A DNA stretch of 29,683 bases from Candidatus Altarchaeum sp. (GTDB lineage Archaea; Altiarchaeota; Altiarchaeia; Altiarchaeales; Altiarchaeaceae). Shown here piece after piece: positions 1-19,333 of this stretch. The DNA lies in contig JAGWDQ010000104.1 in NCBI GenBank assembly GCA_018260615.1, positions 1,845-31,527 of the forward strand, read 5' to 3'. The notes under the pieces are model-generated. The model was not told the origin of the DNA. It saw only the letters and a program-made list of their open reading frames with translations, and did no database searches. The translations under genes were made by a program, and so were the position numbers. Position 1 is the first letter of the stretch. Each line of letters starts with the position of its first letter.

Positions 1-80
1 TTTTATTTTTATATCTGTATTGTTAATTTGTATTCTTATTATTTTAAGATGAAAATTTTGTTTATCCATGCGGACTACAT
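1..80 (+). repeat. Shortest copy of the thrS 5' region (upstream sequence plus the first ~11 codons, ATG at 49)
   Basis: 1-80 is identical to 2442-2521 (ttttatttttatatctgtattg...atgaaaattttgtttatccatgcggactacat). It reads MKILFIHADYI, then diverges to TAA at 124-126, just before the ATG at 129. The copy may extend beyond the window edge. Confidence 0.9.
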
Positions 81-128
81 TGTAACAAAAAATCAGGCAT
101 CATATGTTTTATCTTCATCATTATAAAG

Positions 129-1091
129 ATGGATATTCAAGAGATTTTAAGTTTTAGTTTTATTTTTCCATTGGCCGCAGGAATTATTTTCGGATTTTTA
201 GTTTTGTATATGTTTCGTGAAGATGTCCAGAAGGATAATTACCTTGTATGTGTATCAGGGTATATGAATATCAGAAGTTCTCGTATGAAACCTTTATTAT
301 TTTCGGATTTTGATAATATTCCTAATGCTGCAAACCTGGTTGAAAAATATAGTTTTGACAGTGATCCTAGTATAAGGGTGAAAATTGTAGATGTGATAGA
401 TGCGCATTTTGACAAGATTCCGAATGCCGGAGAAATTATTAAAAGACTTTCTTATGATCAAAATCAGTATGTAAAATATTCGGTTGCAGATGTGATAGAC
501 AGGCATTTTGACAAGATTCCGAATGCCGGAGAAATTATTAAAACATTTTCTTATTTCCCTAAAGATGTAAAAAGCGCTGTTGCTAAAGTAATAAAAAATC
601 ATTTTGATAAAATCCCTGATGCCGGAAGAATTACGGGAGAATTATCACATTCATCAGATATAGATGTAAAATTACAATGTGCAAAAATATTAAAAAAGCA
701 TTTTAATAAAATTCCTGATGCCGGAAAAATTTTTGCGGACTTATATAAATACGGCGAGACAGATGAAAATATGAATCTGCTTTCAATTGAAATATTAAGG
801 GATCATTTTAATAAAATTCCAAAAGCACCGGAGATTTTTGTAAATATATTAGGCACAGTTATGACCACTTCAACTTCAGGAGATGATGAAATTATATTCC
901 AAGATGTTATTCGTATATTTTCAAAACATTTTTATGAAATTCCAGATGCTGAAGAATTATTAGAAATTTTCATGACAATAGTAAATAAAAAAGAATACCT
1001 AAAGGAACTTTGTAAGCAACAATATTTTAAAAACTTTTTTGTCAACATTCCTAATGGGATGGAAATATTAAAAAAGAATAGAATAATATAA
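129..1091 (+). CDS. Membrane-anchored alpha-solenoid (HEAT/ARM-like) repeat protein
   Basis: N-terminal hydrophobic helix, then about 7-8 repeats of ~33-35 aa with consensus HF(D/N)KIP(N/D)A. A 41-bp exact DNA repeat at 404-444 and 503-543 gives a 99-bp period. Confidence 0.7.
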   Translation: MDIQEILSFSFIFPLAAGIIFGFLVLYMFREDVQKDNYLVCVSGYMNIRSSRMKPLLFSDFDNIPNAANLVEKYSFDSDPSIRVKIVDVIDAHFDKIPNAGEIIKRLSYDQNQYVKYSVADVIDRHFDKIPNAGEIIKTFSYFPKDVKSAVAKVIKNHFDKIPDAGRITGELSHSSDIDVKLQCAKILKKHFNKIPDAGKIFADLYKYGETDENMNLLSIEILRDHFNKIPKAPEIFVNILGTVMTTSTSGDDEIIFQDVIRIFSKHFYEIPDAEELLEIFMTIVNKKEYLKELCKQQYFKNFFVNIPNGMEILKKNRII

Positions 1092-1121
1092 AATTGTAAT
1101 GCAAAAAATAATTATTAAAAA

Positions 1122-2276
1122 ATGACATGTTGCAGGGGTAAAAAAATTATATTTTTGATTTTTGGACTGATTTTAATGTTGAGTTCAAATGTAGTCGCAT
1201 GCAATATTTATTGCTCAGATTGCACATCTTGTATAACCGCAATAAATTCCGTTTCCTCTGGACAGACGATATGTCTTAATACACCTATATTTTCTAATGA
1301 AACATGTATTAACAATCCTGCAAATTTCAACAATAAAATTTTTGATTGTCGTGTAAAAGCAATTAGTGGTAATGGAAGTGATTATGGAATTTACTTGAAA
1401 GGAAAATACAACAATACAATAAAAAATTGTATAATTTCTAATTTTAACGAAGGGATTTATTTAAGTTCTTCTGTTGAGTTTATTGGCGGATCTTATGTTG
1501 AAGTTCCTTCTTCAAACAACCTTATAACCAGTAACTTTCTGATGTTTAATAATGGAGATGGAATTTTTATAAAGGATTCTTCAAATAACATAATATCTGA
1601 TAACTACATATATCAATCATCCTGTAATGTTGGTTGTGGTGGAATTTCGCTATGGTGGTCAACAGATAATTACATAATCAATAATAACATAACTTCAAAT
1701 ACTAATGGAATTTATCTCAAGGAATCGTCAAATAATTTCATTTATAATAATTTCTTTGATAATTGGCATAATATCGCTTTTGAAGGAAATGTATCTCACA
1801 TTAATTACTGGAATACAACAAAAAAACAAGGAAAAAATATAATTGGCGGTTCGTATCTGGGTGGAAATTTCTGGAGTGAATTTAGTAATAACTTGACAAG
1901 TTGTAATCCCAATAATGGATTTTGCCAAAATATTTTTTCCATTTCAACAAACAATATTGATAAATTGCCTTTAACTATGTTGTGCTTATCAAACAATAGC
2001 TGTTTAAGCACAGAAGCGTGCAACATGACAACACATACATGTCAAAATCTAAACTGCCCGGAAAATGAAACTCTATTTAACCATACTTGTGTAAAATGTA
2101 ATTTATTTGACTTTGATAATAATACAGAAGTTGATATTTTTGATGCGGTTATAGCATTAGAATATATAAGTAAAGGAGAAATACAAATTGCAAATTTATG
2201 CACTACTCCTGAAGGAAAAATTGATTTAATGGATGTTTTGCGTTTAATTGAAAAAATAGGATTATGTTCTATATAA
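1122..2276 (+). CDS. Secreted right-handed beta-helix (CASH/NosD-like) protein with C-terminal dockerin-like domain
   Basis: Signal peptide; repeats of the GIYL..S.NN.I..N type; GGNFWS motif; C-terminal DFDNNTEVDIFDAV...IDLMDV pair. The N-terminal CINNPANFNNKIFDC segment is paralogous to CIDNPAGFNNKVFDC in the 1612-aa ORF. Confidence 0.75.
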   Translation: MTCCRGKKIIFLIFGLILMLSSNVVACNIYCSDCTSCITAINSVSSGQTICLNTPIFSNETCINNPANFNNKIFDCRVKAISGNGSDYGIYLKGKYNNTIKNCIISNFNEGIYLSSSVEFIGGSYVEVPSSNNLITSNFLMFNNGDGIFIKDSSNNIISDNYIYQSSCNVGCGGISLWWSTDNYIINNNITSNTNGIYLKESSNNFIYNNFFDNWHNIAFEGNVSHINYWNTTKKQGKNIIGGSYLGGNFWSEFSNNLTSCNPNNGFCQNIFSISTNNIDKLPLTMLCLSNNSCLSTEACNMTTHTCQNLNCPENETLFNHTCVKCNLFDFDNNTEVDIFDAVIALEYISKGEIQIANLCTTPEGKIDLMDVLRLIEKIGLCSI

Positions 2277-2830
2277 ACGGAGACATAATAAATCTTCATA
2301 AAAATTGTGTTTAAGCCACATAATAATTCAATTTTCATACCTAATTGGTCTATAAAACGAGGGCAAAAAAACATATAGGGTCTGCCGTGTAATTATGAAA
2401 TTTAAATAAATTTTTGTTTCAATTCATTTAGCACAACTAAATTTTATTTTTATATCTGTATTGTTAATTTGTATTCTTATTATTTTAAGATGAAAATTTT
2501 GTTTATCCATGCGGACTACATAAAGATAGAGGTTAAGAAAAAAGCAATCGCAGATGCAGATGAAATAAATGAGAAAAATTTGGAAGCAAAAGAATGTTTA
2601 ATTGTATTTACAGCAGTTGAAAAGGACGACGAGAAAAACAAGACCGAAATTTTAAACAAAACAATAGACAATATTAAGGATGTTTATAGCAAGGTTAATG
2701 CAAAAAGTATAGTTGTTTATCCTTATGCCCACCTTTCAGGCAATCTGGCAAGTCCGAAATTTGCAAAGGAAATGCTTCGGGATATCTATGAAAATTTAAA
2801 ACAACAAAATTTAGGTGTAATTAAGGCACC

Positions 2831-3281
2831 CTATAGCGCCAAAACTCCGTTGGATGTAAAACAGCGGCATCCGTCAAAATGATGGAAACGCCAATAAATA
2901 TCTATTTTGATTAACATAAATATCCTTTTAAATATGCAATACATGAGTATCGGCCAAATTAAAAAAATTAACCAAATTAATTATTACCACATTTATATAA
3001 AATGAACATATAAATGGTAATGTTTATTTTCATCAAATATTAAAATAACTGATAATCATGAAATATTAATATTTTTATATCAAAATCTAATTACATTTTA
3101 CATTATTCCGTAAAATTTGAAACTAATTTTTATTAGTGAGGCACTGTCTTGTTATGAATTATTTTATACTCGGACAAAATGATTTAAAATTATTATCACT
3201 ATATAGGGATGGATTATGGACATATATTGCACATGTCTCCCAGAATTATGCCATAATTCCAACGGCATTTTGACGCTATAA
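2831..3281. mobile_element. 451-bp MITE-like non-autonomous insertion, family unassigned
   Basis: 8-bp target duplication aaggcacc at 2823-2830 and 3282-3289. Imperfect 24-bp terminal inverted repeats, ctatagcgccaaaactccgttgga versus revcomp ttatagcgtcaaaatgccgttgga (20/24). AT-rich interior with no transposase ORF. Confidence 0.88.
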
Positions 3282-3416
3282 AAGGCACCGTTCGGATATT
3301 ATAAAGGGTTTGAAGTCAAATGTAATGATGGGAATTCGCATCCGCTTAGTAAATTATGTGAATCATGCAAAACCAAAGTTGAAAAAGAAAACACAGAAAT
3401 TAAGATAACACAAGGA

Positions 3417-3644
3417 ATGGAAAATGTAATGAAAGTATTATCTTATAATGACGTTGTGGTGGTTAAAACACTATTGTTTCATGGATGTATGAGGAGAAGA
3501 AATGAAATTGCAAGAGGAACCGGAATTTCAAGGTCAAGTTTATCTAATACATTAAGAAAATTGGAAGAAAATAAAGTTGTTGAAATAGACCGAACATTTA
3601 GGGCTCACACAATAAAACTAACTGGCTGGTTTAAATCATTATGA
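3417..3644 (+). CDS. wHTH domain of cassette A, possibly expressed alone after the MITE insertion
   Basis: RNEIARGTGISRSSLSNTLRKLEENKVVEIDR...IKLTGWF is a typical archaeal MarR/TrmB-like winged helix. In-frame ATGs at 3417 and 3429. Confidence 0.6.
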   Translation: MENVMKVLSYNDVVVVKTLLFHGCMRRRNEIARGTGISRSSLSNTLRKLEENKVVEIDRTFRAHTIKLTGWFKSL

Positions 3645-3659
3645 ATCATAAAAAACCAA

Positions 3660-3720
3660 AACAATAAATGGAACAAAAGTTCATATCACATTTAATTTAT
3701 TGTTCGGTACTATTTATATA
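3660..3720 (+). promoter_or_regulatory. Putative operator plus TATA box of the secreted-protein gene (copy A)
   Basis: 10-bp inverted repeat aacaataaat (3660-3669) / atttattgtt (3695-3704) encloses gaac-aaaa-gttc (3671-3682). TTTATATA lies at 3713-3720, 44 bp before ATG 3764. Confidence 0.55.
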
Positions 3721-3763
3721 TCAATTAATAAAAAATAAAATTAAAACATAAAAAAGTAAGAAG

Positions 3764-4159
3764 ATGGATAAATTAAAAACAGGGTTTTTGGTGGTGTTGG
3801 TTGGAATGATAGTAGCAGGAATGGCAATAAGTGGAGTGACAGGATATAAGTACACAGCAAGTTGTAAGCATACCTCAACAAACTGGTTTGGAACGGAAGT
3901 ATACGATGGCGAAGAGGGATATGCTTATTGCGATGTATATCAGGAAAATGGAAATACCTGGAGATGGCATATTGATTCTAGCATAGATGATGAAATAACT
4001 GGAACGTTTTATTCCGCTAGCTTTGGCGTCCAAGCAAAAGGTTATGATGGATATTTGAATGAATGTTGCAGTTGTTATAATGGATATAATGTAGCATGGG
4101 GGTTTGGAGGATATAACAGAAATTGTGGCTATCACGAGTGCATGGCTGCATGTGGATAA
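3764..4159 (+). CDS. Cassette A variable secreted Cys/Tyr/Gly-rich protein (131 aa, ~104 aa mature, 8 Cys)
   Basis: Shared leader MDKLKTGFLVVLVG, hydrophobic core, probable signal peptidase site VTG-Y; the mature part is unique to this cassette. Confidence 0.8.
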   Translation: MDKLKTGFLVVLVGMIVAGMAISGVTGYKYTASCKHTSTNWFGTEVYDGEEGYAYCDVYQENGNTWRWHIDSSIDDEITGTFYSASFGVQAKGYDGYLNECCSCYNGYNVAWGFGGYNRNCGYHECMAACG

Positions 4160-4202
4160 TAAAAGAGAGGAATTACAGATAGAAAAATATCGCTTGTGAA
4201 TA

Positions 4203-4252
4203 TTTTTTAACTTTTTATTTTTTCTTTATTTTTCTTCTTTTTATTTTTTTTT
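4203..4252 (+). terminator. Oligo-T tract, probable archaeal terminator after the secreted-protein gene
   Basis: Long T-rich run. Similar tracts follow the cassette B (~9367-9384) and cassette C (~11104-11129) secreted genes. Confidence 0.4.
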
Positions 4253-4350
4253 AATTATCGAAGTTTTATGTATTTCAGTATGTATTTATCTATCTAATTA
4301 AAATAAAAAATTAAATTATAGGTGTAAATTTTTCAAAATGCAAATTTAAA

Positions 4351-5235
4351 ATGAAATCATTAAAAAAATATATCATTCTAATTGCTATATTTTTTATTAT
4401 TTTAGCAGGTATAATATTATACACACAGATAGGAAAGCAAGGTTCATCTGATTTTATGAATTTTTCACAAAATATATCTAATGATACATCTCAAGAATCT
4501 GAAACACAAATAATAATAGGAAAGAATATTGAATTTTCCACGACTAAAACAAACACTCTTGAAAATCTTCCATATACTTCAAAACCAAAATTTAAAATTG
4601 GAGAAAAATATACATATCAAGCAAGGAATACAGGTCCTTCTAATAAAATAGTGGAAGATTTGCGAAAACGTCCAGGCACTATTATTTATGACTATATGAC
4701 TTATCCCATAACATTTTCTGTAGAGAAAATTGAACGGATAAACAAAACAGATTATTATTTAATTTCAACCGAGGGTTCTGGGGAAGTAATTCTTGGAGTT
4801 ATAAAAGATAAGGAAGGAATGCAACGACCATTTACAACTACAAAATTTCATCTTACTAAATATTACATAAACACGGAAAATGGAGAAATATTATTTAAAG
4901 AAGGTGGCGATCCAATAGGTTTTCTTAGAATATATGAGCCAAGAATGTTAAAATTATCCGAAGGTTTAAAATGGCAAGAAAGAAGCGAAACCAATGCCAC
5001 AAACGAACAAACAATTAATGAAGAAAGTTGTGAAGTTAAAGATGTTGAGGAAATTAATGGAAAAAAGTGTTTTAAGGTTGAATGCAGAGTAAAGCAATGC
5101 AAAAATGAAGAATGTAAAGTAGTATATAGAAAATTATATTGGGTGGATATGGAAAAAAGGTTAACCTTAAAATTTCAATTATGGTATGAAAATCTTCAAA
5201 CAATGGATGTATCTCTTATTAACTATGAGAAATGA
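4351..5235 (+). CDS. Membrane-anchored extracellular protein with LolA-like beta repeats; paralog of 11159-12034
   Basis: N-terminal TM helix; motifs KPKFKIGEKYTY, VEKIERINKTDYYLI, EEINGKKCFKVE and YWVDMEKR match the 291-aa ORF. Its stop overlaps the next start (ATGA 5232-5235). The fold call is by motif resemblance only. Confidence 0.7.
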   Translation: MKSLKKYIILIAIFFIILAGIILYTQIGKQGSSDFMNFSQNISNDTSQESETQIIIGKNIEFSTTKTNTLENLPYTSKPKFKIGEKYTYQARNTGPSNKIVEDLRKRPGTIIYDYMTYPITFSVEKIERINKTDYYLISTEGSGEVILGVIKDKEGMQRPFTTTKFHLTKYYINTENGEILFKEGGDPIGFLRIYEPRMLKLSEGLKWQERSETNATNEQTINEESCEVKDVEEINGKKCFKVECRVKQCKNEECKVVYRKLYWVDMEKRLTLKFQLWYENLQTMDVSLINYEK

Positions 5236-7157
5236 ACTTTAAAATAATGTTGATAATAGTAGGAATTATTGGAATCATTAGTATGTATGTGGGATTGACA
5301 TATATTCAGGAAGATTATTTTCATCACCCGGTTAAAGAAAATACTACTAACAACAAATTCAATGAAACAATTAATAATCTCTCAAATACTCGTACAAGTG
5401 AAAAAACAAATGTGGGAAATAAGGAAAATGCAACTAATAAAATTAACAATCTTAACAACGTCTCTGCGACGACTTTGCACAACATAGATAAAAGTATCAA
5501 GGAAAACTTTACTTATATTAAAGCATATACTTATAAATATATTGCTGCAAAACATATAGGGCAACCCGATGAGAGAAAATCTTACGAAGCCAATGTAACG
5601 ACACAAATAAGAGAAACAAAGGAAATTGATAGTAAGAAATCCATAGTTGTAGAAAGTAAAACACATCCTTCAAGTGATTTGATAACATTTCACAGATCAG
5701 AATCCCCTCCTCCGGCAATAGGGATGTATGTATCTCTTTATACTTGTTCCCAATGTGAGATAAAATCTTGCGGTGGCTATTTCTGGGACAGTGTTGAATA
5801 TGTAAATGATATGTACATAAAAATAATATGGGTTCCGTGGGGAATAAAATACAAAAAGGAAAATGGCAGCATATATGAAAAATTGGAATTATGCCCAGAA
5901 AATGCAATAACTGTTATTTACTCATCAAATTCTACTGATTATGTTTATTCTTATTGGGTCGGAAAAGACAAAATTTATCCTTCATTGAATAATTTAACAG
6001 ATTATACAAAATCTAATTACCCTTTAAATGATTTGTTCCACTCTGTATTAAAGATTCATCCGCTTTTTTTGCCTGGGTTTATAAATTGTACAAGAGTTAA
6101 TTTTTCAAGTACAATAGATAAAAAATTCATAGATGCTACCTGTTCAGATAACAAAGTAAAACTTACAGAGGATACGATGGGATACGAGTGGAAAACAAGA
6201 TACAACGTGACATATATAAAAACAATTGATAACAAAAACGCAATCGTTTCGTCTTATATAGATACCCAATTTTCTTATACTCCAGACAAAAATGATACTC
6301 ATCTTTTTCTTATAAGACATGATTACTCAGCATCAGAAAATCTTTTGTGGAAAGGAATAGAAAAAGTTGGAGGAAGAGAATGCTATAAAGTAGAATACTC
6401 TATTGCAGATTTGGATAATGTAATAGGGGTTGAAACTGATATATTTACAATGTGGATTGATAAGAATAGTAGCGAGATAATTGAAGGAAAACATGAGAAA
6501 ATATTTGTGTGCAACGAATGTAAAGATAAATCCAAAAAAGTTACTCCTTTCTACATGTATGATCTCATTGAAGAATACGAAAACTATAGTTATTGCGGAG
6601 ATAAGGTATGTGACTCTGCAAATAAAGAAACTCCTGAAACTTGTTGTAAGGATTGTGGTTGTAAAGACAAAAAAGAGGAGTGCAGGGATGAAATATGTAT
6701 GCTAAAAGTCAATGATGGATATATGTTTATTGACAAAACCTTTAACTATTCCGTTGTCTTGTCAAGCGAATATTACGCGAAGAAAGCCGATGAAACAAAG
6801 ATATTGTTTTATAGCAATAACGAAACTAAAAAATATTGCACATTAAATATTCAGATAGTCCCAAGCAGAGATGTTGGTGGAGCTTATAATTCCATTGAGG
6901 ATATAAAAGAACATCTTATTGAACAAATCGGAAATTATGAAAATTTAACAGAGAAAAAACTAAAAATACGCACATCACAAAATATAGATGCCTATGAAAC
7001 AACCCTTTATGAAAAGGATAACGATATAAAAAGGACGGTTATGATAGCAAAACACAACAACTATTTTTACGTCATCACCTATATTTCTACACCAAAAGAT
7101 TATACTGCAGCATACGAGGATTATAGAAAAATGGTTCAAAGTTTTGTATTTCTTTAA
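5232..7157 (+). CDS. Membrane-anchored multidomain protein (LolA-like motif, Cys-rich module, C-terminal PsbP/DcrB-like domain)
   Basis: N-terminal TM and Asn/Thr linker; GIEKVGGRECYKVEY..MWIDK; CGDKVCD..ETPETCCKDC; C-terminal FYVITYISTPKDY...RKMVQSFVF. Confidence 0.65.
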   Translation: MNFKIMLIIVGIIGIISMYVGLTYIQEDYFHHPVKENTTNNKFNETINNLSNTRTSEKTNVGNKENATNKINNLNNVSATTLHNIDKSIKENFTYIKAYTYKYIAAKHIGQPDERKSYEANVTTQIRETKEIDSKKSIVVESKTHPSSDLITFHRSESPPPAIGMYVSLYTCSQCEIKSCGGYFWDSVEYVNDMYIKIIWVPWGIKYKKENGSIYEKLELCPENAITVIYSSNSTDYVYSYWVGKDKIYPSLNNLTDYTKSNYPLNDLFHSVLKIHPLFLPGFINCTRVNFSSTIDKKFIDATCSDNKVKLTEDTMGYEWKTRYNVTYIKTIDNKNAIVSSYIDTQFSYTPDKNDTHLFLIRHDYSASENLLWKGIEKVGGRECYKVEYSIADLDNVIGVETDIFTMWIDKNSSEIIEGKHEKIFVCNECKDKSKKVTPFYMYDLIEEYENYSYCGDKVCDSANKETPETCCKDCGCKDKKEECRDEICMLKVNDGYMFIDKTFNYSVVLSSEYYAKKADETKILFYSNNETKKYCTLNIQIVPSRDVGGAYNSIEDIKEHLIEQIGNYENLTEKKLKIRTSQNIDAYETTLYEKDNDIKRTVMIAKHNNYFYVITYISTPKDYTAAYEDYRKMVQSFVFL

Positions 7158-7259
7158 AATAATATGAGTGGTTGTAATTTGTTGAACCAGAACTTCTTAT
7201 TATCAATATTAATAATTTTATTTTGTATTCTAATTGATTAAAGTTAATGCTATTTCAGA

Positions 7260-7955
7260 ATGAAAATTTTACTCATACATGCGGACTACATAAAGATAGA
7301 GGTTAAGAAAAAAGCAATCGCAGATGCAGATGAAATAAATGAGAAAAATTTGGAAGCAAAAGAATGTTTAATTGTATTTACAGCAGTTGAAAAGGACGAC
7401 GAGAAAAACAAGACCGAAATTTTAAACAAAACAATAGACAATATTAAGGATGTTTATAGCAAGGTTAATGCAAAGTCAGTTGTAATTTATCCTTATGCTC
7501 ACTTGTCAAGCAATCTGGCAAGTCCGAAATTTGCAAAGGAAATGCTTCAGGATATCTATGAAAATTTAAAGGCACAAAATTTAGATGTAATTAAAGCACC
7601 GTTCGGATATTATAAGGGATTTGAGATAAAATATAATGATGGGAATTTGCATCCGCTTAGTAAATTATGTGAATCATGCAAAACCAAAGTTGAAAAAGAA
7701 AACACAGAAATTAAGATAACACAAGGAATGGAAAATGTAATGAAAGTATTATCTTATAATGACGTTGTGGTGGTTAAAACACTATTGTTTCATGGATGTA
7801 TGAGGAGAAGAAATGAAATTGCAAGAGGAACCGGAATTTCAAGGTCAAGTTTATCTAATACATTAAGAAAATTGGAAGAAAATAAAGTTGTTGAAATAGA
7901 CCGAACATTTAGGGCTCACACAATAAAACTAACTGGCTGGTTTAAATCATTATGA
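7260..7955 (+). CDS. Cassette B: intact ThrRS editing domain-wHTH fusion protein (231 aa)
   Basis: HADY, YPYAHLS, APFGYYKGF and HPLS motifs of the archaeal editing domain, then CESC, a linker and the wHTH, in one uninterrupted frame. Confidence 0.9.
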   Translation: MKILLIHADYIKIEVKKKAIADADEINEKNLEAKECLIVFTAVEKDDEKNKTEILNKTIDNIKDVYSKVNAKSVVIYPYAHLSSNLASPKFAKEMLQDIYENLKAQNLDVIKAPFGYYKGFEIKYNDGNLHPLSKLCESCKTKVEKENTEIKITQGMENVMKVLSYNDVVVVKTLLFHGCMRRRNEIARGTGISRSSLSNTLRKLEENKVVEIDRTFRAHTIKLTGWFKSL

Positions 7956-8118
7956 ATCATAAAAAACCAAAACAATAAATGGAACAAAAGTTCATATCAC
8001 ATTTAATTTATTGTTCGGTACTATTTATATATCAATTAATAAAAAATAAAATTAAAACATAAAAAAGTAAGAAGATGGATAAATTAAAAACAGGGTTTTT
8101 GGTGGTGTTGGTTGGAAT
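7649..8118 (+). repeat. 470-bp invariant cassette core, copy B
   Basis: Identical by eye to 3338-3807 and 10367-10836. Confidence 0.95.
7971..8031 (+). promoter_or_regulatory. Putative operator plus TATA box (copy B)
   Basis: Same inverted repeat and TTTATATA as 3660-3720. Confidence 0.55.
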
Positions 8119-9304
8119 AGTTGTATCAGTAATGCTAAGTTCGGCGAGTGCTGCAGATTTAAAAATTACTTATGTTGATGAAGTCCCCGCAGATGCTGAA
8201 GCAGATGGTGCATGGTCTGGTGCATGGTGGTCTGGAGAATATGGATGGCCCAGTATGAAATTGAATCCCACAGAATCAAATTTTATGAGTTATCTTGCAA
8301 GCTATGATTCTGTATTTTTTTCAGGACATGGTAATGACGATTGTATTGGTGGAAATCATCCGAACGGATTTAGCGGACAAGTAATGTGCTCAAACGAAAT
8401 TAATAGTTGCCAAGCCACAAATGAAGTTACTTTGATGACCTGTGAGTCATATAATGACTTTGGAGATGAACTTATAGATTCTGGCACTAGTTGTGTTGTT
8501 GGGTGGCCAGGCATCTTAAGTGCAAATCAACAAACTGGATCAGATTGGGCGTGGTATTTTTACTATTGTGCTCAATATTCAACTGATTCTGGCACATGTG
8601 AAAACTGGGCATCAGCAAATAGCGGACTATCTGGTTCTGCATCAAAAGGGAGCTGTTCAAACACACATGGAACATCGACTGGTAAGACAAATCTAAAGGA
8701 GAGTGAGACAAATCTAAATGAGAACAAGGATGCAAAAAAGAACAAACCACATATATCTAACATACCGGTTAAATTTAAGAGGTTATATGATGAGCAAGGA
8801 AATGTTACTATAACTGCAGAGGCCAATGATGGCAAAGTAATCTCTTACTTAAATGTAGCTAAATATAAAAACAAAGGTACAAAAAATATTACAAAGGAGA
8901 GAGCATTGGATATTGCTAAAGAAAAGATAAAAGTGCCTAAAGATTATGTATTGACTGAAACCGAAGATGAGGATAATAGTTACAATTTCATGTTTAACAG
9001 AGTTATTGATAACATATCACTAAAAAGTGATTGGATATGGGTGTCAGTAAACAAGGGAGCAGGAGAGATTTCTATGTGGTCAAAAGTATATCATGAAGAA
9101 TTGCCTGATTTAAAACCAACAATTTCAAAAGAGGGAGCCATTAAAATAGCCAATGAAGAGTTCAATGGTGGTGCGGAAATATCAGAACTTACCGTAGTGG
9201 GTTGTGACGAGGATGCACTCTGTTTAGCATGGTTGGTTGTAGATAGTGATAGTAAACTATACAATTACATATATTTAGATGCGCACACAGGCAAACGAAT
9301 TTAG
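8075..9304 (+). CDS. Cassette B variable secreted protein: putative clan-CD (caspase/gingipain-like) His-Cys domain plus PepSY-like C-terminal domains
   Basis: Shared leader, cleavage ASA-A; VFFSGHG and TLMTCES followed by CVVGW; C-terminal ITKERALDIAKE, ISKEGAIKIANE and WLV...IYLDAHTGK. Confidence 0.6.
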   Translation: MDKLKTGFLVVLVGIVVSVMLSSASAADLKITYVDEVPADAEADGAWSGAWWSGEYGWPSMKLNPTESNFMSYLASYDSVFFSGHGNDDCIGGNHPNGFSGQVMCSNEINSCQATNEVTLMTCESYNDFGDELIDSGTSCVVGWPGILSANQQTGSDWAWYFYYCAQYSTDSGTCENWASANSGLSGSASKGSCSNTHGTSTGKTNLKESETNLNENKDAKKNKPHISNIPVKFKRLYDEQGNVTITAEANDGKVISYLNVAKYKNKGTKNITKERALDIAKEKIKVPKDYVLTETEDEDNSYNFMFNRVIDNISLKSDWIWVSVNKGAGEISMWSKVYHEELPDLKPTISKEGAIKIANEEFNGGAEISELTVVGCDEDALCLAWLVVDSDSKLYNYIYLDAHTGKRI

Positions 9305-9399
9305 TAATATATTAGTGAAAACAAGCGAAACACTGCACAAAGACATGGGAGAGGTATACTCCCCTCTTTATTTCTTTCTTTTTTAAAAAGATATTAAAA

Positions 9400-9864
9400 A
9401 TGAATCTAAAATTAAAAATATTAATCATAAGTATTGGAATCGTTATATCAATATTGATCAGTGGATGCGTAGAAGAGAAGCCAGAAGAAAAAATAAAAAT
9501 AACAATCATGACACAATGTAAAGACAATACAACAAAAATACTAATGTATGATGGTGAAAATTATGATAAGATTTTAAATGAATCTATGAAAATTGTTAAT
9601 TCAGCAAGCAAAAAAATACAGTTGCTTGTCCCAGAAGAAATAAAAAATGAAACAATATCAGAATCTTGCGTAGAACTAACATTTTCAAAGACCATAAATA
9701 TATCCACTCGCGAAGTAGAGAATTTTAGTGCGAAAAAAATTATTATTGTGTTATCTGGAAAATACAAAGATATGATATTTATATATGATGGAAAATATTG
9801 GAATACTCAAGGGTCTGATGTTAGTACAGATAGACTGCTCTCTTTAACCAAATGTTATCTTTAA
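9400..9864 (+). CDS. Putative lipoprotein, cassette B partner gene
   Basis: Basic N-terminus, hydrophobic stretch and lipobox-like ISGC; directly follows the secreted protease-like gene. Confidence 0.7.
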   Translation: MNLKLKILIISIGIVISILISGCVEEKPEEKIKITIMTQCKDNTTKILMYDGENYDKILNESMKIVNSASKKIQLLVPEEIKNETISESCVELTFSKTINISTREVENFSAKKIIIVLSGKYKDMIFIYDGKYWNTQGSDVSTDRLLSLTKCYL

Positions 9865-10076
9865 TCTTTTGTAGTTATTTAAAAACTTTGTTTTAAATTT
9901 TCGAATAACACTGTGGGAGATTTTCACATTTTTACGCATATTTGACTTTTAGGTTTGTGTTGTTAATTTGTAGCTATTCAGCTACCTAATAGGGATAATT
10001 TAAAAATCTTGTAGATTTTCAATAAATTTTTCATCAGAAGTTTTTATTTTTATCTTTGCATTGTTAATTTGTATTC

Positions 10077-10673
10077 TTGGAATGTTTGGTTGTATTTACA
10101 GCAGTTGAAAAGGACGACGAGAAAAACAAGACCGAAATTTTAAACAAAACAATAGACAATATTATGGATGTTTATGGCAAGATTAATGCAAAATCCGTTG
10201 TAATTTATCCTTATGCTCATTTGTCAAGTGATCTGGCAAGTCCGAAATTTGCAAAGGAAATGCTTCAGAATATTTATGAAAATTTAAAGGGACAAAATTT
10301 AGATGTAATTAAGGCACCGTTCGGATATTATAGGGGCTTTGAAGTCAAATGCAATGATGGGAATTCGCATCCGCTTAGTAAATTATGTGAATCATGCAAA
10401 ACCAAAGTTGAAAAAGAAAACACAGAAATTAAGATAACACAAGGAATGGAAAATGTAATGAAAGTATTATCTTATAATGACGTTGTGGTGGTTAAAACAC
10501 TATTGTTTCATGGATGTATGAGGAGAAGAAATGAAATTGCAAGAGGAACCGGAATTTCAAGGTCAAGTTTATCTAATACATTAAGAAAATTGGAAGAAAA
10601 TAAAGTTGTTGAAATAGACCGAACATTTAGGGCTCACACAATAAAACTAACTGGCTGGTTTAAATCATTATGA
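10077..10673 (+). CDS. Cassette C: 5'-truncated ThrRS editing domain-wHTH fusion (possible TTG start; may be a pseudogene)
   Basis: 10046-10079 equals thrS upstream 12071-12104, then jumps to thrS codon 35 (ECL), so the ATG and first 34 codons are deleted. The rest is in frame to the wHTH stop. Confidence 0.7.
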   Translation: MECLVVFTAVEKDDEKNKTEILNKTIDNIMDVYGKINAKSVVIYPYAHLSSDLASPKFAKEMLQNIYENLKGQNLDVIKAPFGYYRGFEVKCNDGNSHPLSKLCESCKTKVEKENTEIKITQGMENVMKVLSYNDVVVVKTLLFHGCMRRRNEIARGTGISRSSLSNTLRKLEENKVVEIDRTFRAHTIKLTGWFKSL

Positions 10674-10836
10674 ATCATAAAAAACCAAAACAATAAATGG
10701 AACAAAAGTTCATATCACATTTAATTTATTGTTCGGTACTATTTATATATCAATTAATAAAAAATAAAATTAAAACATAAAAAAGTAAGAAGATGGATAA
10801 ATTAAAAACAGGGTTTTTGGTGGTGTTGGTTGGAAT
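10367..10836 (+). repeat. 470-bp invariant cassette core, copy C
   Basis: Identical by eye to 3338-3807 and 7649-8118. Confidence 0.95.
10689..10749 (+). promoter_or_regulatory. Putative operator plus TATA box (copy C)
   Basis: Same inverted repeat and TTTATATA as 3660-3720. Confidence 0.55.
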
Positions 10837-11056
10837 GATGGTGATCGGAGCAATAGCAAGCGGGGTAGGTGCAGATTATGCATTTTGTAAGTATCATAAT
10901 GGTGGGAGTAGTATAGGATCCTATTGTGATGCGTATACAGATTGTGGAAACGGTTATTGTATAAATAGCATTGCGTGTGATGATTGGATGTCTAACCAAC
11001 ACATAACTTTTTGTATATATGGGCAAACTTATTACTACTTTGGGTTCAACTGTTAA
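10793..11056 (+). CDS. Cassette C variable secreted Cys/Tyr-rich peptide (87 aa, ~60 aa mature, 7 Cys)
   Basis: Shared leader, probable cleavage VGA-D. It shares only CK and YCD.Y motifs with the cassette A mature peptide. Confidence 0.8.
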   Translation: MDKLKTGFLVVLVGMMVIGAIASGVGADYAFCKYHNGGSSIGSYCDAYTDCGNGYCINSIACDDWMSNQHITFCIYGQTYYYFGFNC

Positions 11057-11158
11057 TAGTAATAGAAAAGAGGTATTTGTAAAAACTACAGAAAAATTCA
11101 ATATTTTTTTATTTTATTTTTTATTTTTTGACTTCTAATTCTAATATTTATTTTAAAA

Positions 11159-12034
11159 ATGGAAAAAAAGAAAGTAAATAATTTTGTTATTGGTTTTATT
11201 GTAATTGTCGTGTTAATTTCAACATATTTAATATTGAATCATAACGCTGAAATAGAGCATTCAAATACAACAAACAGTTCGGTAAACATAGTCAACAGCT
11301 CTATTGAAAAGTATGTGGATTTCACAGAAAATGTAAAAGAAAACGCAAAAGAAATAAACTTTACTATATCTGAACACAATATAAAACCACAGTTTAAGGT
11401 TGGAGATAAATTTAAATATACAATACACGGTTCTTCGCTTAATCCAAAGAATAATTCTGCAGACATAAATGGTATTTTAGAATGCAATGTTGAAAAATTG
11501 GAAAGGATTAATGGAAAGGATTGCTATTTGCTTGTTTCAAAAACACAAACATCTCTACCAGATAATTCTCCACTTAAAGCAATTCTTTCAGAAACAAAAC
11601 ATTGGGTAGACAAAGATACGGGAAAAATCATAAAAACGAGTATACAAGAGAGCATGATTCAGCAGAAAGGAAAAGTAATAGAAATGCCTTCTTCAGAAGC
11701 AACAATACCTAATGAAACATCTGATATATATGGAAATATTATGTATTATCCTTGGATGTTAGCATTAGATGATAATTTTGAAATGAAAGTTAATGAAAAT
11801 AGTCAGGGTATAAAAACTTCTTTTGTAAGTGTGTTTAAGGTGATTGGAAAAGAAAAAATAAATGACAGAGATTGTTTTAAAGTTGAGTTGAGGGTATTAG
11901 ATGAAAATAAGCATGTTCTTCTGCGAGAAAATATATGGGTTGATATAAAAAAAAGGGTTTTAGTAAAGGCAGAAACATACTCTGAAAACTTAAAAGTTGG
12001 AGAGGTAAATTTGATAGATTATTCTAGCATTTAG
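11159..12034 (+). CDS. Membrane-anchored LolA-like repeat protein; paralog of 4351-5235
   Basis: TM helix; KPQFKVGDKFKY, VEKLERINGKDCYLL, WVDKDTGKII, EKINDRDCFKVE, IWVDIKKR. Confidence 0.7.
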   Translation: MEKKKVNNFVIGFIVIVVLISTYLILNHNAEIEHSNTTNSSVNIVNSSIEKYVDFTENVKENAKEINFTISEHNIKPQFKVGDKFKYTIHGSSLNPKNNSADINGILECNVEKLERINGKDCYLLVSKTQTSLPDNSPLKAILSETKHWVDKDTGKIIKTSIQESMIQQKGKVIEMPSSEATIPNETSDIYGNIMYYPWMLALDDNFEMKVNENSQGIKTSFVSVFKVIGKEKINDRDCFKVELRVLDENKHVLLRENIWVDIKKRVLVKAETYSENLKVGEVNLIDYSSI

Positions 12035-12151
12035 GAAATTTTTGAATGATGGACTTTATTACACTTTTTGATTTTTATCTTTGCATTGTTAATTTGTATT
12101 CTTGTATTCATAATTACTATTAAATTTTTAAATTTTAAATATTATTTTAGA

Positions 12152-14071
12152 ATGAAAATTTTGTTTATCCATGCGGACTACATAAAGATAGAGGTTAAGA
12201 AAAAAGCAATCGCAGATGCAGATGAAATAAATGAGAAAAATTTGGAAGCAAAAGAATGTTTAATTGTATTTACAGCAGTTGAAAAGGACGACGAGAAAAA
12301 CAAGACCGAAATTTTAAACAAAACAATAGACAATATTAAGGATGTTTATAGCAAGGTTAATGCAAAAAGTATAGTTGTTTATCCTTATGCCCACCTTTCA
12401 GGCAATCTGGCAAGTCCGAAATTTGCAAAGGAAATGCTTCGGGATATCTATGAAAATTTAAAACAACAAAATTTAGGTGTAATTAAGGCACCGTTCGGAT
12501 ATTATAAGGGATTTGAAGTCAAATGTAAGGGACATCCGCTCAGCGAATTAAGCAGAGAAATTAAGGTTGAGGAAAAGGAGGAGGGAAAGGAAAAAGAAAG
12601 GGCTGTTGTTAAGGAAGAAACAAAAATCACAAGAGAGGATGTTGTAAAAGATATAAAATCAGAGTTTTTTGTTCTGGCACCGACAGGAGAGGAATACAAA
12701 ATTGACATGGAAAATTTAAAGGAAAATTTAGACAGGTATGAAATTTTTAACAAATTTCCGACATTAAAGAAGTATATAGTGGCAGAGGAATTGAAGAATG
12801 TGTCATCGGCAGAACCGCCTTCAATAAAGGCAATGGTGCATCTGGAATTGATTGATTATGAGGGAGCAAGTGATTCGGGAAATTTTCGTTTTTATCCGAA
12901 AGGAAATTTAATATTTGATTTGTTAAGCGACTGGGCAGAGGAAATTGCTTTGGAGCGTTTAGGTGCAATGAAGATTGAAACCCCCATCATCTATGACTGG
13001 AGTATGCCTGACATCAGAGAGCAGGGACAGTCATTTCATGAAAGACATTATATGGTAAAAGTTCCGGATGATGAAAATAAGGAATTTGTTTTGAGATTTG
13101 CGGGTGATTTCGGATTGTTCAGGATTATGAAGCAGATAAATATGAGTTATGACCAGTTACCCATAAGAATGTATGAATTTTCAAAGAGTTTCAGGTATGA
13201 AAAGAAAGGAGAGTTAAGCGGACTGAGAAGATTGCGGGCATTCCACATGCCTGATGTGCATTCTTTCTGCAGGGATATTGAACAGGGCTGGGACGAATAT
13301 GAAAATTTATATAAAAGTTATAACGATCTGGCAAACGCAACGGGAATTGAATATGCGGTTGTTTTCAGGATTGTTAAGGAATTTTACGACAAGTATAAAG
13401 AGCGACTTATAAATTTACTCAAATACTCGGATAAGCCGGCATTTATTGAGGTCTTATCAGCAATGAAACATTACTGGGCGGTTAAGCACGAATTTCAGGG
13501 AATTGATTCTGTTGACGGAAACTGTCAGTTAAGCACAGTTCAGCTGGATGTTAAAGATGCAAGTACCTACGGAATAAATTTTGTTGATAATGACGGGAAG
13601 AAAAAGGGCTGCACAATTTGTCATTCGTCAATCGGCTCAATTGAAAGATGGATGTTTGAAATTCTGGAAAACGCTCTGAAGTCAGAAAAACCAATGCTTC
13701 CGTTATGGCTCTCGCCTACGCAATGCAGAATCATTCCCGTCTCAAAGGAATTTTTAAATTTTTCCGATGAAATTATGCGTGAAATTGAAAAAGCAGACAT
13801 CAGGATTGATATTGATGACCGAAATGAAACATTAAGTGCAAAAATCAGAAAGGCAGAGCGGGAATGGACTCCGTATATTGTTGTAATCGGAGAAAAAGAA
13901 AGGGAAAGCAAAAAATTTTCAGTAAGGCGGAGAGAGGATAATCAAAATTTAAATCCGGGAATTTCAGAACTGGCTGATGAAATTAAAAGCAAAACAAAAG
14001 GAATGCCATTCAGGAAATCAAACCTTTCAAAATATTTGTCAAAGAGGCCTATTTTTGTCGGATATACTTAA
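12152..14071 (+). CDS. thrS: Threonine--tRNA ligase, archaeal type with N-terminal editing domain (639 aa)
   Basis: Editing-domain motifs HADY, YPYAHLS and APFGYYKGF..CKGHPLSEL; class II motifs FRYEKKGELSGLRRLRAFHMPDVH and SIGSIERW; anticodon-binding PLWLSPTQ...IVVIGEKE. ATG 12152 is preferred to the ORF-track start 12068. Confidence 0.97.
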   Translation: MKILFIHADYIKIEVKKKAIADADEINEKNLEAKECLIVFTAVEKDDEKNKTEILNKTIDNIKDVYSKVNAKSIVVYPYAHLSGNLASPKFAKEMLRDIYENLKQQNLGVIKAPFGYYKGFEVKCKGHPLSELSREIKVEEKEEGKEKERAVVKEETKITREDVVKDIKSEFFVLAPTGEEYKIDMENLKENLDRYEIFNKFPTLKKYIVAEELKNVSSAEPPSIKAMVHLELIDYEGASDSGNFRFYPKGNLIFDLLSDWAEEIALERLGAMKIETPIIYDWSMPDIREQGQSFHERHYMVKVPDDENKEFVLRFAGDFGLFRIMKQINMSYDQLPIRMYEFSKSFRYEKKGELSGLRRLRAFHMPDVHSFCRDIEQGWDEYENLYKSYNDLANATGIEYAVVFRIVKEFYDKYKERLINLLKYSDKPAFIEVLSAMKHYWAVKHEFQGIDSVDGNCQLSTVQLDVKDASTYGINFVDNDGKKKGCTICHSSIGSIERWMFEILENALKSEKPMLPLWLSPTQCRIIPVSKEFLNFSDEIMREIEKADIRIDIDDRNETLSAKIRKAEREWTPYIVVIGEKERESKKFSVRRREDNQNLNPGISELADEIKSKTKGMPFRKSNLSKYLSKRPIFVGYT

Positions 14072-14887: not shown

Positions 14888-15116
14888 ATGCCAAAACTAC
14901 CTGTTCTCAACTACACACAACTTATCAAGAAGGTCAAAAAAGCCGGCTTTGTTTTTGAAAGACAAGGAAAAGGAAGTCATGAGTTTTGGGTTAATTATGA
15001 GACAAAAAGAATCGTCATGGTGCCAAGACATCCCGCAAAAAACCATTCCGACAGGGACATTAAAAAGCATCATCAGGGAATCCGGACTCAGTGTTGACGA
15101 ATTCTTAAAATTATAA
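14888..15116 (+). pseudogene. hicA: HicA-family mRNA interferase with a 1-bp frameshift
   Basis: KKAGFVFERQGKGSHEFW..VMVPRH. Removing one A from the A6 run at 15037-15042 restores HPAKTIPTGTLKSIIRESGLSVDEFLKL* (75 aa). Confidence 0.85.
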
Positions 15117-15156: not shown

Positions 15157-15275
15157 AATTCTTAAATTTTCGCCATATCAATCTGATAATAAATGACATC
15201 ACTGTCCTTATCCACAAGAGCATAAACTAAATTTTTATTCACCGCCTTTGCGAGCCGAATATTTCCCGCGATTTC
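15157..15275 (-). repeat. 119-bp direct-repeat copy of the endA 3' end
   Basis: Matches 17371-17489 (offset 2214) with 2 mismatches and includes the endA stop codon. Confidence 0.93.
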
Positions 15276-15422
15276 ATGCAGCGGCATAATCAGGATAGAA
15301 AGGAACACTTTGCGTTATTTTCAAAGTCGGGCTTTGAGGATGAATTGCGAAATGCGGCATTAAAGAATAAAGAACCGGTCTTATTGTTTGACCTTAATGA
15401 TTTATCAAAGGAATTTGAATAA
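15276..15422 (+). pseudogene. 3' remnant (48 codons) of an ATPase-DUF234 paralog
   Basis: MQRHNQDRKEHFALFSKSGFEDELRNAALKNKEPVLLFDLNDLSKEFE*. DNA 15277-15338 nearly equals 16817-16878 in the neighbouring ATPase gene. Confidence 0.85.
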
Positions 15423-15552: not shown

Positions 15553-16944
15553 ATGGAAAAATTTATCAATAGAAAATACGAACTAGGCGTTCTGGAAGAG
15601 AGATTTTTGTCTGAAAGATCTGAGATGATTATAATATATGGGCGAAGACGGGTTGGAAAGACAGAATTAATACAAAAGTTTTTGACGAATGTAAGTGGAA
15701 TTTACCTGCTGGGCAGGGAGGAATCAGAGTTTGATCAATTACGGAGATTTTCTTCCATAATTGCATCACATTTCAATGATGATGTCTTATTGAAAAATCA
15801 CTTCAGGAGCTGGGATGCTCTCTTTGAGTATATAAACAGGGAATCTGAAAAACGATTGATGCTGGTTATTGATGAATTTCCCTATCTTTTGAAATCTTCC
15901 TCCGCGTTACCCTCAATTATCCAGGATTACTGGGATAATAAATTAAGATATAAAAAACTCTTTTTAGTGTTGTGTGGATCTTCCATAGGGATGATGGAGA
16001 ATCTTATGGGATATACAAGCCCTTTATATGGCAGAAGAACCGGACAATTGTTAATTAAACCATTCAGATTTAAAGACACAATGAAATTTTTTCCGCATTA
16101 TGATATCAAAGAAAAAATTCAGGCATATACAATTTTGGGAGGTACGGCAGCATATCTTTCACAGTTCTCAGATAGTATCTGTATCAAAGAAAACATTAAA
16201 TGTAAAATTTTAAGAAAAGATAATTTCCTGTTCATGGACCCTGTATTTATATTGAGAGAAGAGCTTGATGAGCCGAGATACTATTTTTCTATTCTGAAAT
16301 CAATTGCGAATGGAAACACAAAATTAGGGAACATAGTGAATGATGTTGGATTGCCAAAGGGAATTGTCGGGAAGTATTTGTCTGTGCTAATTGATTTACA
16401 CATAATTGAGAGAGAAGTGCCAGTAACAGAATTCCACCCGCAGAAGACAAGAAAAGGGTTATACAAGATAAAAGATAATTTCTTTAGATTCTGGTTTGGC
16501 TCCGTTTATCCGTATTTAGAATCTATAGAGCAGGGCAATATGGATTTTGTGCTGGATAAAGCAGTAAATTTTATAGAGAGAGTTATTCCATTTACTTATG
16601 AAGATATTTGCAGGGAATTCCTGGTGGAAATAAATCAAAAGAATACTCTTCCTTTTTTATTCTTCCGTGCCGGACGGTGGTGGGATGGAGGTAATGAAAT
16701 TGATATTGTTGCGCTGAATGAAGAAACAAAAGAAATTTTATTTTGCGAATGTAAATGGACAGAAAAAAAGGTCGGATTAAAAATTTTAAATGAATTAAAG
16801 GAAAAAGCAAAATTAGTGCAGTGGCATAATCAGGATAGAAAGGAATACTTTGCGTTATTTTCAAAGTCGGGCTTTGAAGCCGATTTAAAAGATAAGGTCT
16901 TGTTGTTTGACCTTAATGATTTATCCGAAGAATTTGAAAAATAG
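15553..16944 (+). CDS. Archaeal ATPase (ATPase_2 type) with wHTH and C-terminal DUF234 PD-(D/E)xK-like domain
   Basis: FINRKYEL, Walker A GRRRVGKT, Walker B LVIDEF, LYGRRTG, DNFFRFWF, EIDIVA...FCECKW. Confidence 0.9.
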   Translation: MEKFINRKYELGVLEERFLSERSEMIIIYGRRRVGKTELIQKFLTNVSGIYLLGREESEFDQLRRFSSIIASHFNDDVLLKNHFRSWDALFEYINRESEKRLMLVIDEFPYLLKSSSALPSIIQDYWDNKLRYKKLFLVLCGSSIGMMENLMGYTSPLYGRRTGQLLIKPFRFKDTMKFFPHYDIKEKIQAYTILGGTAAYLSQFSDSICIKENIKCKILRKDNFLFMDPVFILREELDEPRYYFSILKSIANGNTKLGNIVNDVGLPKGIVGKYLSVLIDLHIIEREVPVTEFHPQKTRKGLYKIKDNFFRFWFGSVYPYLESIEQGNMDFVLDKAVNFIERVIPFTYEDICREFLVEINQKNTLPFLFFRAGRWWDGGNEIDIVALNEETKEILFCECKWTEKKVGLKILNELKEKAKLVQWHNQDRKEYFALFSKSGFEADLKDKVLLFDLNDLSEEFEK

Positions 16945-17031
16945 AACAATGAGAAAATAAAGTGCCTGCGCGTGAGAATCCTTTGATTTTTAGAGATTCA
17001 CTTTTTTCAATAGAGTGAGAATGTTGTAAAA

Positions 17032-19300: not shown

Positions 19301-19333
19301 TTTATCTTTTGTTTTTATTTCTTTCTGTTAAAA

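Follow-up and report, generated by a model that had tools for sequence, protein, structure and literature searches.

How a row of secreted-protein genes came to lie between repeated 5' ends of the gene for threonyl-tRNA synthetase (ThrRS, thrS) is the question raised by a 29,683-nt stretch of DNA from Candidatus Altiarchaeum, an uncultivated groundwater archaeon. The stretch, here called the window, covers positions 1845-31527 of contig C104 of the metagenome-assembled genome (MAG) G000 (2.2 Mb, 148 contigs, 87% complete). An earlier note had read it as a growing integron-like effector array without integrase, with thrS as its landing pad. We compared the window with the Geyser Andernach MAG G001, with the genomes G002 (65% complete) and G003 (87% complete), and with L026, a contig from the Joint Genome Institute (JGI) that represents a third Altiarchaeum lineage; G001 and G003 belong to species other than that of G000 (~85% nucleotide identity). 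With a confidence that we place slightly above even, the results argue for a real chromosomal array that arose and was rearranged through repeated homology-driven insertion with long target duplication and through recombination between its heads, without a dedicated recombinase. The locus looks like one site repeatedly hit by a kind of integrase-free insertion that is common in this genome, and not like an integron-like machine; thrS is best read as an occasional partner and not as an obligatory landing pad.

Self-BLAST and a repeat search of the window, together with Pfam scans of its proteins, revealed the following layout, in which cargo genes alternate with heads that join the editing domain (ED) of ThrRS to a predicted winged helix-turn-helix (wHTH) domain.

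1-80, + strand: orphan stub with a 37-nt promoter-like element, the thrS start codon and the first 32 nt of coding sequence
129-2276, + strand: cargo of unit 0, with an 80-nt exact direct repeat on either side
2442-3823, + strand: head A, broken, consisting of the 37-nt element (2442-2478), the 5' part of the ED (2490-2830), a miniature inverted-repeat transposable element (MITE, 2831-3281), the end of the ED with the wHTH (3282-3644), and the intergenic region with signal-peptide codons (up to 3823)
3764-7157, + strand: cargo A, three genes
7158-8134, + strand: head B, intact ED-wHTH gene with its own thrS-type upstream region
8075-9864, + strand: cargo B, two genes
10042-10842, + strand: head C, with an N-terminally deleted ED
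10793-12034, + strand: cargo C, two genes; this cassette is kept in three lineages
12067-14071, + strand: thrS region with the 37-nt element (12067-12103), a 48-nt spacer, the thrS ATG at 12152 and the stop at 14071

The thrS promoter and 5' coding region are found at 1-80, 2442, 7212 and 10042, ahead of the intact gene at 12152, with start-to-start distances of 2441, 4770, 2718-2830 and 2062-2174 nt. Chance is ruled out as the source of these repeats (E-values down to 0). The copies listed in the earlier note at 1, 2442, ~7260, ~10046 and 12152 are therefore real, except that the one at position 1 is merely an 80-nt stub. It is 100% identical to 2442-2521 and lies directly downstream of a divergent DUF357 gene beyond the window edge. 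Positions 2478-2830 and 12140-12492 share 99.4% identity, the sole two mismatches lying directly 5' of the ATG, and from the start codon onward 341 nt are identical (2490-2830 and 12152-12492). Identity was 90.1% between 7238-7667 and 12128-12550, and 86.6% between 10080-10385 and 12254-12550. On the wHTH side, blocks of 532-757 nt were 96.8-99.1% identical to each other: 97.1% over 757 nt for 7362-8118 versus 10080-10836, 99.1% for 3282-3813 versus 10311-10842, and 96.8% for 3267-3823 versus 7579-8134. The recurring cassette boundary is the 37-nt promoter-like element in direct orientation, which within the G000 genome is confined to this locus. Self-comparison and gene calls agreed with the earlier description of 2.0-4.8 kb blocks with all genes on the + strand and the intact thrS last. 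The latter (12152-14071) comprises the ED, the catalytic and the anticodon-binding domains and is the only thrS found in the G000 assembly.

Each of the three heads (0.8-0.95 kb) is composed of a thrS-type promoter, ~150 codons of the ED, a linker, the wHTH and an intergenic region, and ends 50-60 nt (17-20 codons) into the secreted-protein gene, inside the signal peptide (MDKLKTGFLVVLVG...). The upstream copies had been described as truncated or fused to a wHTH; all three heads carry the ED-wHTH combination, and head A is additionally split by the MITE. The sole intact ED-wHTH gene of G000 is the open reading frame (ORF) of head B at 7260-7955 (231 aa). Its ED matched PF08915 at 1e-45 (cut-off 30.2 bits). 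An AlphaFold2 model with a mean predicted local distance difference test (pLDDT) score of 90 comprised the ED, a disordered linker (residues 139-148) and the wHTH, in which residues 155-230 were predicted to form helices and a two-strand wing (pLDDT ~90). The best Foldseek matches of this model were the ThrRS editing domains of Pyrococcus abyssi and Methanocaldococcus (41-46% identity), with 2HL1 and 1Y2Q aligning to the ED at E ~5e-16, TM-scores of 0.83-0.87 and 46% identity. The wHTH matched several HTH families in Pfam at 5e-4 to 9e-3, each under the curated cut-off, and is homologous to the C-terminus of proteins that are named 'HTH iclR-type domain-containing' in one source.

The junction between both parts, HPLSKLCESCK...ITQGMENVMK, is identical in G000, G001 (261 aa) and L026 (230 aa). 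Over its last ~90 residues, the chimera shares homology (≤71% identity) with membrane-anchored proteins of 286-340 aa, namely with their cytoplasmic end, indicating that the ED took the place of their extracellular and transmembrane parts. Between lineages, dN/dS of the wHTH part was 0.18-0.39. Among 1.84 billion representative proteins, a single cluster covers both domains of the ED-wHTH architecture. Searches with the wHTH part against metagenome contigs gave two distant matches only, and those with the thrS protein and a 130-aa ED fragment turned up no other gene context. The chimeric gene was not found in the assemblies of G002 or G003 (65% and 87% complete). Where it occurs, there is one intact head per genome, and any others are broken, each in a different way (MITE, N-terminal deletion, internal deletion, replacement). 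Judged by junction and substitution pattern, the heads are copies of a conserved chimeric gene under purifying selection and more than the integration scars that had been assumed.

The MITE in head A (451 nt) has terminal inverted repeats of ~24 nt and a 9-bp target duplication. At least four 100% identical copies exist in G000, the sites besides the window being C105:13549-14001, C111:21947-22397, C17:13041-13491 and C145:1-55; the element was thus recently active. In head C, the 37-nt element is fused straight to ED codon ~35, and the remaining ORF (10077-10673; 198 aa from a TTG start) is devoid of ED residues 1-34. Matches to ED plus wHTH in two other Altiarchaeales families (G020 and G022) were rejected as a fusion: they represent two genes separated by a TGA stop. 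At both loci, L037 (G022:C7, ~2265-3000, minus strand) and L038 (G020:C90, ~2070-2813, plus strand), a ~140-aa ED/DTD-like gene is followed by TGA and then by an in-frame ArsR-type wHTH gene, which is a second, independent pairing of an editing-domain-like protein with a wHTH.

In the cargo of unit 0, the gene for a 320-aa membrane protein that contains ~33-aa repeats (129-1091) precedes that for a NosD/beta-helix protein of 384 aa (1122-2276; Pfam NosD, 7e-28). Cargo A encodes a 131-aa Cys-rich secreted protein (3764-4159), the 294-aa LolA-like membrane-anchored protein Lol294 (4351-5235) and a 641-aa protein with an N-terminal transmembrane segment (5232-7157). In cargo B, PepSY/DUF4901 domains are present in the 409-aa secreted protein (8075-9304), and its downstream neighbour (9400-9864, 154 aa) is a putative lipoprotein. 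Cargo C pairs a Cys-rich secreted protein (10793-11056, 87 aa) with the 291-aa LolA-like protein Lol291 (11159-12034; Pfam LolA_like, 2.3e-7). Each of the secreted-protein genes at 3764, 8075 and 10793 starts with an ATG of its own, encodes an entire Sec-type signal peptide whose cleavage site is AxA-like, and is followed by a partner gene. Class III (pilin-type) signal peptides were considered for the MDKLKTG leaders and rejected, because in all family members the h-region is followed by AxA/VxA-type signal peptidase I sites.

The earlier view of the blocks as unrelated effectors did not hold, as they belong to paralog families that are also present at head-free loci. Paralogs of unit 0 form an adjacent gene pair on C79, with more on C115, and those of cargo A are located on C80. 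Cargo modules without ED heads were found on C67, C79, C80, C84 and C100, those on C100 downstream of a full-length membrane-anchored wHTH gene. For cargo B, no paralog was found in G000 and no homologue in the compared contigs of G001, G002 and G003. Cargo C shares 84-87% amino acid identity with its G001 homologues and 90% nucleotide identity with L026. In a maximum-likelihood tree of 25 LolA-like proteins, the array members did not form one clade; five changes were needed, of which well-supported branches force at least four. Paralogs from other loci were the partners of several array members, and Lol294 clustered with its C80 paralog and with Lol311 of G001. As the LolA-like genes of the array are not mutual closest paralogs, the cargo was put together and not duplicated in place.

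The content of the array differs among lineages, as the earlier note had expected of the relatives: cassettes A, B and C in G000, X, C and A' in G001, and C alone in L026. In G001, the array lies on one 19.5-kb contig between an ABC/LolA region and convergent pitA/phoU genes. Its order is head, 127-aa secreted protein, Lol305, P266, cargo C and a broken head, which is followed by MDK85, Lol292, Lol311 and P543 up to pitA/phoU. The thrS gene of G001 is located on a separate contig, after a tRNA gene and housekeeping genes; coverage of the array contig and the thrS contig was 1567x and 1556x, respectively. In L026, ilvC is followed by an intact head, cargo C and then non-thrS sequence. Both arrays are thus away from thrS, at odds with the claim that thrS is the obligatory pad and is always restored downstream. 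The order of ages expected for serial insertion at thrS was not observed either: cassette C, which is nearest to thrS, is the one shared by three lineages and has the least thrS-like head (84-87%), whereas the ED part of the farthest head (A) is identical to thrS.

Among the three comparable species G000, G001 and G003, the sequence upstream of thrS differs and the genes downstream are for the most part in synteny; in G002 and G003, thrS has endA and the aconitase gene as neighbours. The G002 thrS contig stops after 500 nt of upstream sequence that consists of dispersed short repeats and carries no synteny signal. G001 and G003, both of other species and with different flanks, have a single thrS 5' end each, without a head upstream. 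The upstream regions of the heads are thrS promoter variants: that of the broken G001 head matches the upstream region of G001's own thrS, and that of head B in G000 resembles the thrS upstream region of G003. The ED copies are as near to the thrS of their own genome as to heads of other genomes, or nearer. The flank differences, the promoter variants and the own-genome likeness of the EDs therefore point to repeated exchange between heads and thrS. A SNP mosaic in the G000 heads, initially considered as proof of gene conversion, was downgraded, since the differences between assemblies all fall in heads; the comparison between genomes was kept. Next to the thrS gene of G001, a tRNA gene with a partial direct copy is located upstream (C65, L014, 12975-13330), and the homologous tRNA in G000 (C88:32997-35164) carries two extra inserted genes of 195 and 419 aa. 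The tRNA site looks like an integration hot spot.

The reliability of the array was evaluated with four assemblies of the same population, namely the G000 scaffold, a JGI contig (31,513 nt), MEGAHIT k141 contigs and the PHDY01 MAG, which agreed in the order A, B, C. The complete order came from the two paired-end assemblies (G000 scaffold and JGI contig). PHDY01 independently spans cargo A, head B, cargo B and head C, and MEGAHIT contigs run from cargo A into head B and from cargo B across the full length of head C, on through cargo C and into the ED that follows. With cargo-head junctions and an entire head bridged in this way, the idea that each strain has a single cassette and that the array is a concatenate of strain variants fails. 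A run of 100 N and a repeated 55-mer before position 1 were rejected as a further thrS copy; they are a scaffolding artefact, because the JGI and MEGAHIT contigs are continuous there and continue into the divergent DUF357 gene upstream. The same 55-mer occurs at the start or end of at least 12 contigs (among them C104:1-55, C100:1-55 and C111:1-55) and marks a high-copy repeat that breaks the assembly. In PHDY01000097.1 (L040), 314 nt of head B, corresponding to window positions 7499-7812, are absent at 4316/4317, with a 3-nt microhomology at the junction; this is either a real variant or an assembly collapse.

In agreement with the earlier observation, no recombinase was found among the window proteins by Pfam scans. 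PF00589 had a single match in the 87%-complete G000 genome (C79:140-625) and none on C104, and PF00239 had no match in that genome. From this sole PF00589 match, the tyrosine recombinase on C79 looks like the usual single Xer-type housekeeping copy. The only transposase-like signal of the window was a 185-aa ORF (25416-25973) whose IS1 InsA-type zinc ribbon has a score equal to the Pfam cut-off. A general inverted-repeat search of the window, made without a dedicated attC model, detected only long-range AT-rich pairs and no attC-like sites. The direct repeats that flank the 2.0-4.8 kb blocks (80, 341-435 and 532-757 nt) vary in length and end points (80, 341, 435, 757 nt) and share no common short core; the blocks carry no mobility genes.

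Such bracketing is not restricted to thrS. Low-copy repeat pairs of 40-800 nt with ≥90% identity and 0.4-8 kb distance were searched throughout G000, yielding 100 direct pairs versus 1 inverted pair. In 56 of the 100 direct pairs, distributed over 34 contigs, one copy extended over a start or stop belonging to an ORF of ≥150 aa, and its counterpart was an orphan. The repeat sequences of these 56 gene-end sites are unrelated to each other. The earlier finding that direct repeats bracket the cargo was thus confirmed and extended to duplicated gene ends as a common feature of the genome. Within the window, gene-end duplications affect the 3' end of endA (119 nt), the 3' end of a surface-protein gene (168 nt) and the 5' end of the aconitase gene (47 nt). 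The respective sites are 15157-15422 versus 16817-17489 (3' ends of endA and of an ATPase_2 gene), 18007-18174 versus 19328-19495 (3' end of the gene for a 1612-aa surface protein) and 26111-26157 versus 26803-26849 (aconitase); the duplicated ends enclose 0.7-2.2 kb of accessory DNA.

The explanation that we favour would proceed as follows. Early in the genus, DNA would have inserted just within thrS, duplicating the promoter and ~150 codons that correspond to the ED. An in-frame fusion of the displaced thrS copy to the wHTH from the cytoplasmic part of a membrane-anchored regulator would have produced an ED-wHTH gene, the first of a three-gene unit that continues with genes for a small Cys-rich secreted protein and its LolA-like partner. 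The 0.8-0.95 kb head could then have acted as a long homology block at which cassettes of the same family inserted, with the head being duplicated each time in a Campbell-like manner, possibly through circular intermediates. Recombination between heads, and between heads and thrS, would have removed units, changed their order or moved them elsewhere, and exchanged the sequence upstream of thrS; in the G000 population, one such event may have set the array directly upstream of thrS. Surplus heads would decay while one per genome remains intact. Homologous recombination is the simplest mechanism for these steps.

Several points weigh against this scenario. In G001, a 3.2-kb block between the head and its secreted-protein gene is associated with an 18-nt AT-rich repeat only, so not every change went through the head. 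The scenario draws on assembled contigs and on relatives from other lineages, and strong gene conversion in an old tandem array could yield the same combination of conserved heads and divergent cargo. The 44-49 differences between assemblies all fall within heads, and the two 341-nt copies vary in parallel; the SNP mosaics of the heads and the exact identity with thrS may be products of assembly. The 341-nt exact repeat that joins the array to thrS is probably a collapsed assembly node, and the pairing of the array end with thrS is provisional and depends on assembly through it. Alternatively, the NosD gene would be joined to thrS directly, accompanied by a 9,662-nt A-B-C circle or a tandem amplification. 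The links NosD to A plus Lol291 to thrS are indistinguishable from such an arrangement.

Other explanations account for part of the same observations. In the one closest to the earlier note, thrS would be a dedicated pad at which unit-length circles (~2-4.8 kb) carrying the thrS 5' region integrate serially, with thrS restored downstream each time, as in an integron without integrase. The lack of a recombinase, the bracketing of each block by direct repeats (exact ones of 80 and 341 nt among them), the cyclic permutation of the order between G000 (A, B, C) and G001 (X, C, A') and the frequent insert-flanking gene-end duplications in G000 fit this proposal. We regard it as unlikely, since the arrays of G001 and L026 are elsewhere, the ages of the cassettes are reversed and the cargo comes from an endogenous paralog family; moreover, the heads derive from one selected chimeric gene with a single junction, and no circle junction was seen. 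A broader idea has a low probability: Altiarchaeum would possess an integrase-free cassette capture in which gene promoters and 5' ends serve as portable pads, and released circles (4.3 kb for A, 9.66 kb for A-B-C) move cassettes between heads, loci and strains. The head would then be regulator and recombination handle at once, and the system an archaeal analogue of integrons. We consider it improbable that the array goes back to a single operon (genes for ED-wHTH, secreted protein and LolA-like protein) that was duplicated in tandem long ago without any insertion of DNA, with the cargo diverging and the heads being gene-converted, also against thrS. The common architecture and orientation of all units, the likeness of the heads to the thrS of their own genome, which is a pattern of concerted evolution, and the 100 to 1 ratio of direct to inverted local repeats would be expected from it. 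It fails on the cargo tree, in which LolA-like proteins group with paralogs from other loci and not with each other. In addition, the gene content of cargo B and unit 0 deviates, the cassette sets vary by species while cassette C is kept at 84-90%, and the surplus heads are pseudogenes, so that only mechanics would hold their likeness.

A partial assembly artefact is a poor candidate. The heads exceed the k-mer size, so a chimeric path could have misplaced the A and B cargo and/or the link to thrS; the array would then lie elsewhere, or represent a strain mix or a circle (9,662 nt for A-B-C, 4.3 kb for A). MEGAHIT contigs end at the 341-nt exact repeat and at the shared wHTH node, the MITE is itself multi-copy, and the parallel inter-assembly differences and the 314-nt deletion in head B of one assembly are in line with such a path. 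An artefact may account for the exact identity with thrS and for its adjacency. It cannot explain the contigs that traverse cargo A/head B and all of head C, or the comparable G001 array, which has more divergent heads and lies on one contig with chromosomal coverage. The full order in two paired-end assemblies and the independent coverage from cargo A to head C by PHDY01 also speak against it. Furthermore, head B with its chimeric junction and the truncated head C are impossible as the 5' end of thrS in any strain. Least probable of all, by a wide distance from even odds, are site-specific integrative elements with attachment sites within the thrS 5' region and an integrase that acts in trans or was lost. 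Archaeal and bacterial integrative elements often duplicate the end of their target gene, a partial tRNA duplicate is located upstream of the G001 thrS, and G000 has one tyrosine recombinase. However, this enzyme is encoded on another contig and appears Xer-like, a serine recombinase was not found in G000, the repeats vary widely in length without a common short core, and the 56 genome-wide sites carry repeats that are unrelated to each other. Taken with the points listed above against it, iterated homology-driven insertion with recombination between heads remains the reading that we prefer.

Insertion with long target duplication is known for restriction-modification genes in Helicobacter, Haemophilus, Neisseria and others (Furuta, Abe, Kobayashi 2010, PMC2853133), where it was defined by direct repeats >30 bp around an insert of <20 kb without mobility genes, the repeat matching a single-copy target in a related genome that is free of the insert. 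The authors proposed amplification and release via the repeats, and no archaeal case survived their screen (PMC2853133). The array described here agrees with the repeat and insert part of that definition, with inserts of up to a few kb, repeats far beyond the target duplications of transposons, no mobility gene and an intact target; as for the single-copy target, the headless thrS 5' ends of G001 and G003 come from other species. It differs in its archaeal host, in cargo made of secreted-protein modules instead of restriction-modification genes, in the iteration of the event at one target to form an array, and in a displaced copy that became a selected chimeric gene serving as homology block. 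The style of insertion is therefore already known; its occurrence in an archaeon, its iteration into an array and the origin of a new gene would be new. Among the papers searched, none was found that joins Altiarchaeum with threonyl-tRNA synthetase or with LolA.

Campbell-type single-crossover integration and tandem amplification between direct repeats are established genetics, known mainly from laboratory constructs and amplifiable units. They predict direct repeats around the insert and a restored target gene, as seen here; in contrast, the process would here be a natural and recurrent route of gene gain. With integrons, the array shares the unidirectional arrangement of small cassettes and a content that varies among relatives. 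It differs in having no intI-type integrase, no attC-like sites as judged by the general inverted-repeat search, gene-sized homology blocks as repeats, and cassettes that bring their own promoter-like regions and a regulator. Site-specific integrative elements differ by their integrase and short identical att core, neither of which was found near the array. Orphan modules of Rhs/CDI systems are 5'-truncated, and their expression needs recombination with the full-length gene. Orphan toxin-immunity modules downstream of rhs/cdiA are reported to recombine with the main gene via a retained conserved fragment (Koskiniemi et al. 2014, PMC3967940). The likeness lies in variable secreted bodies with partner genes and in a conserved block that would permit homologous recombination and ends in a secreted N-terminus. 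The secreted genes of the array are, however, complete, with their own start and signal peptide instead of a 5'-truncation, the conserved block contains a regulator gene of its own in addition to a stretch of an essential gene, and a toxin/immunity role is putative. Free-standing ThrRS editing domains of Crenarchaeota were reportedly described by Korencic and coworkers in 2004. These and DTD-like trans-editing factors resemble the head in having an ED of the same fold apart from the synthetase body; the ED described here is instead fused to a wHTH and was recently copied, together with the promoter, from part of the thrS of the same organism, and is not an old separate gene.

If the favoured explanation is true, the locus would be the clearest multi-step case of gene gain without transposase or integrase in which the target was never inactivated, in an abundant uncultivated subsurface archaeon with >50 such sites counted in its genome. 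It would imply that insertion can create a gene, here by joining the ED of an aminoacyl-tRNA synthetase and its own promoter to a predicted DNA-binding domain, and that the new gene becomes a homology handle for later rearrangements, some of which reach an essential gene. The case also calls for caution with MAGs, since its most striking feature, a sequence identical to thrS and next to thrS, falls in a repeat beyond the resolution of short reads.

Two further observations concern genes outside the array. Downstream of thrS, a HicA toxin homologue is located at 14888-15097. On C56 of G001 (L013, 14025-17764, minus strand), adjacent genes for 376-aa and 751-aa proteins share the N-terminus MAHIIKNT.NAHERAVERVGQIAI and have divergent bodies.

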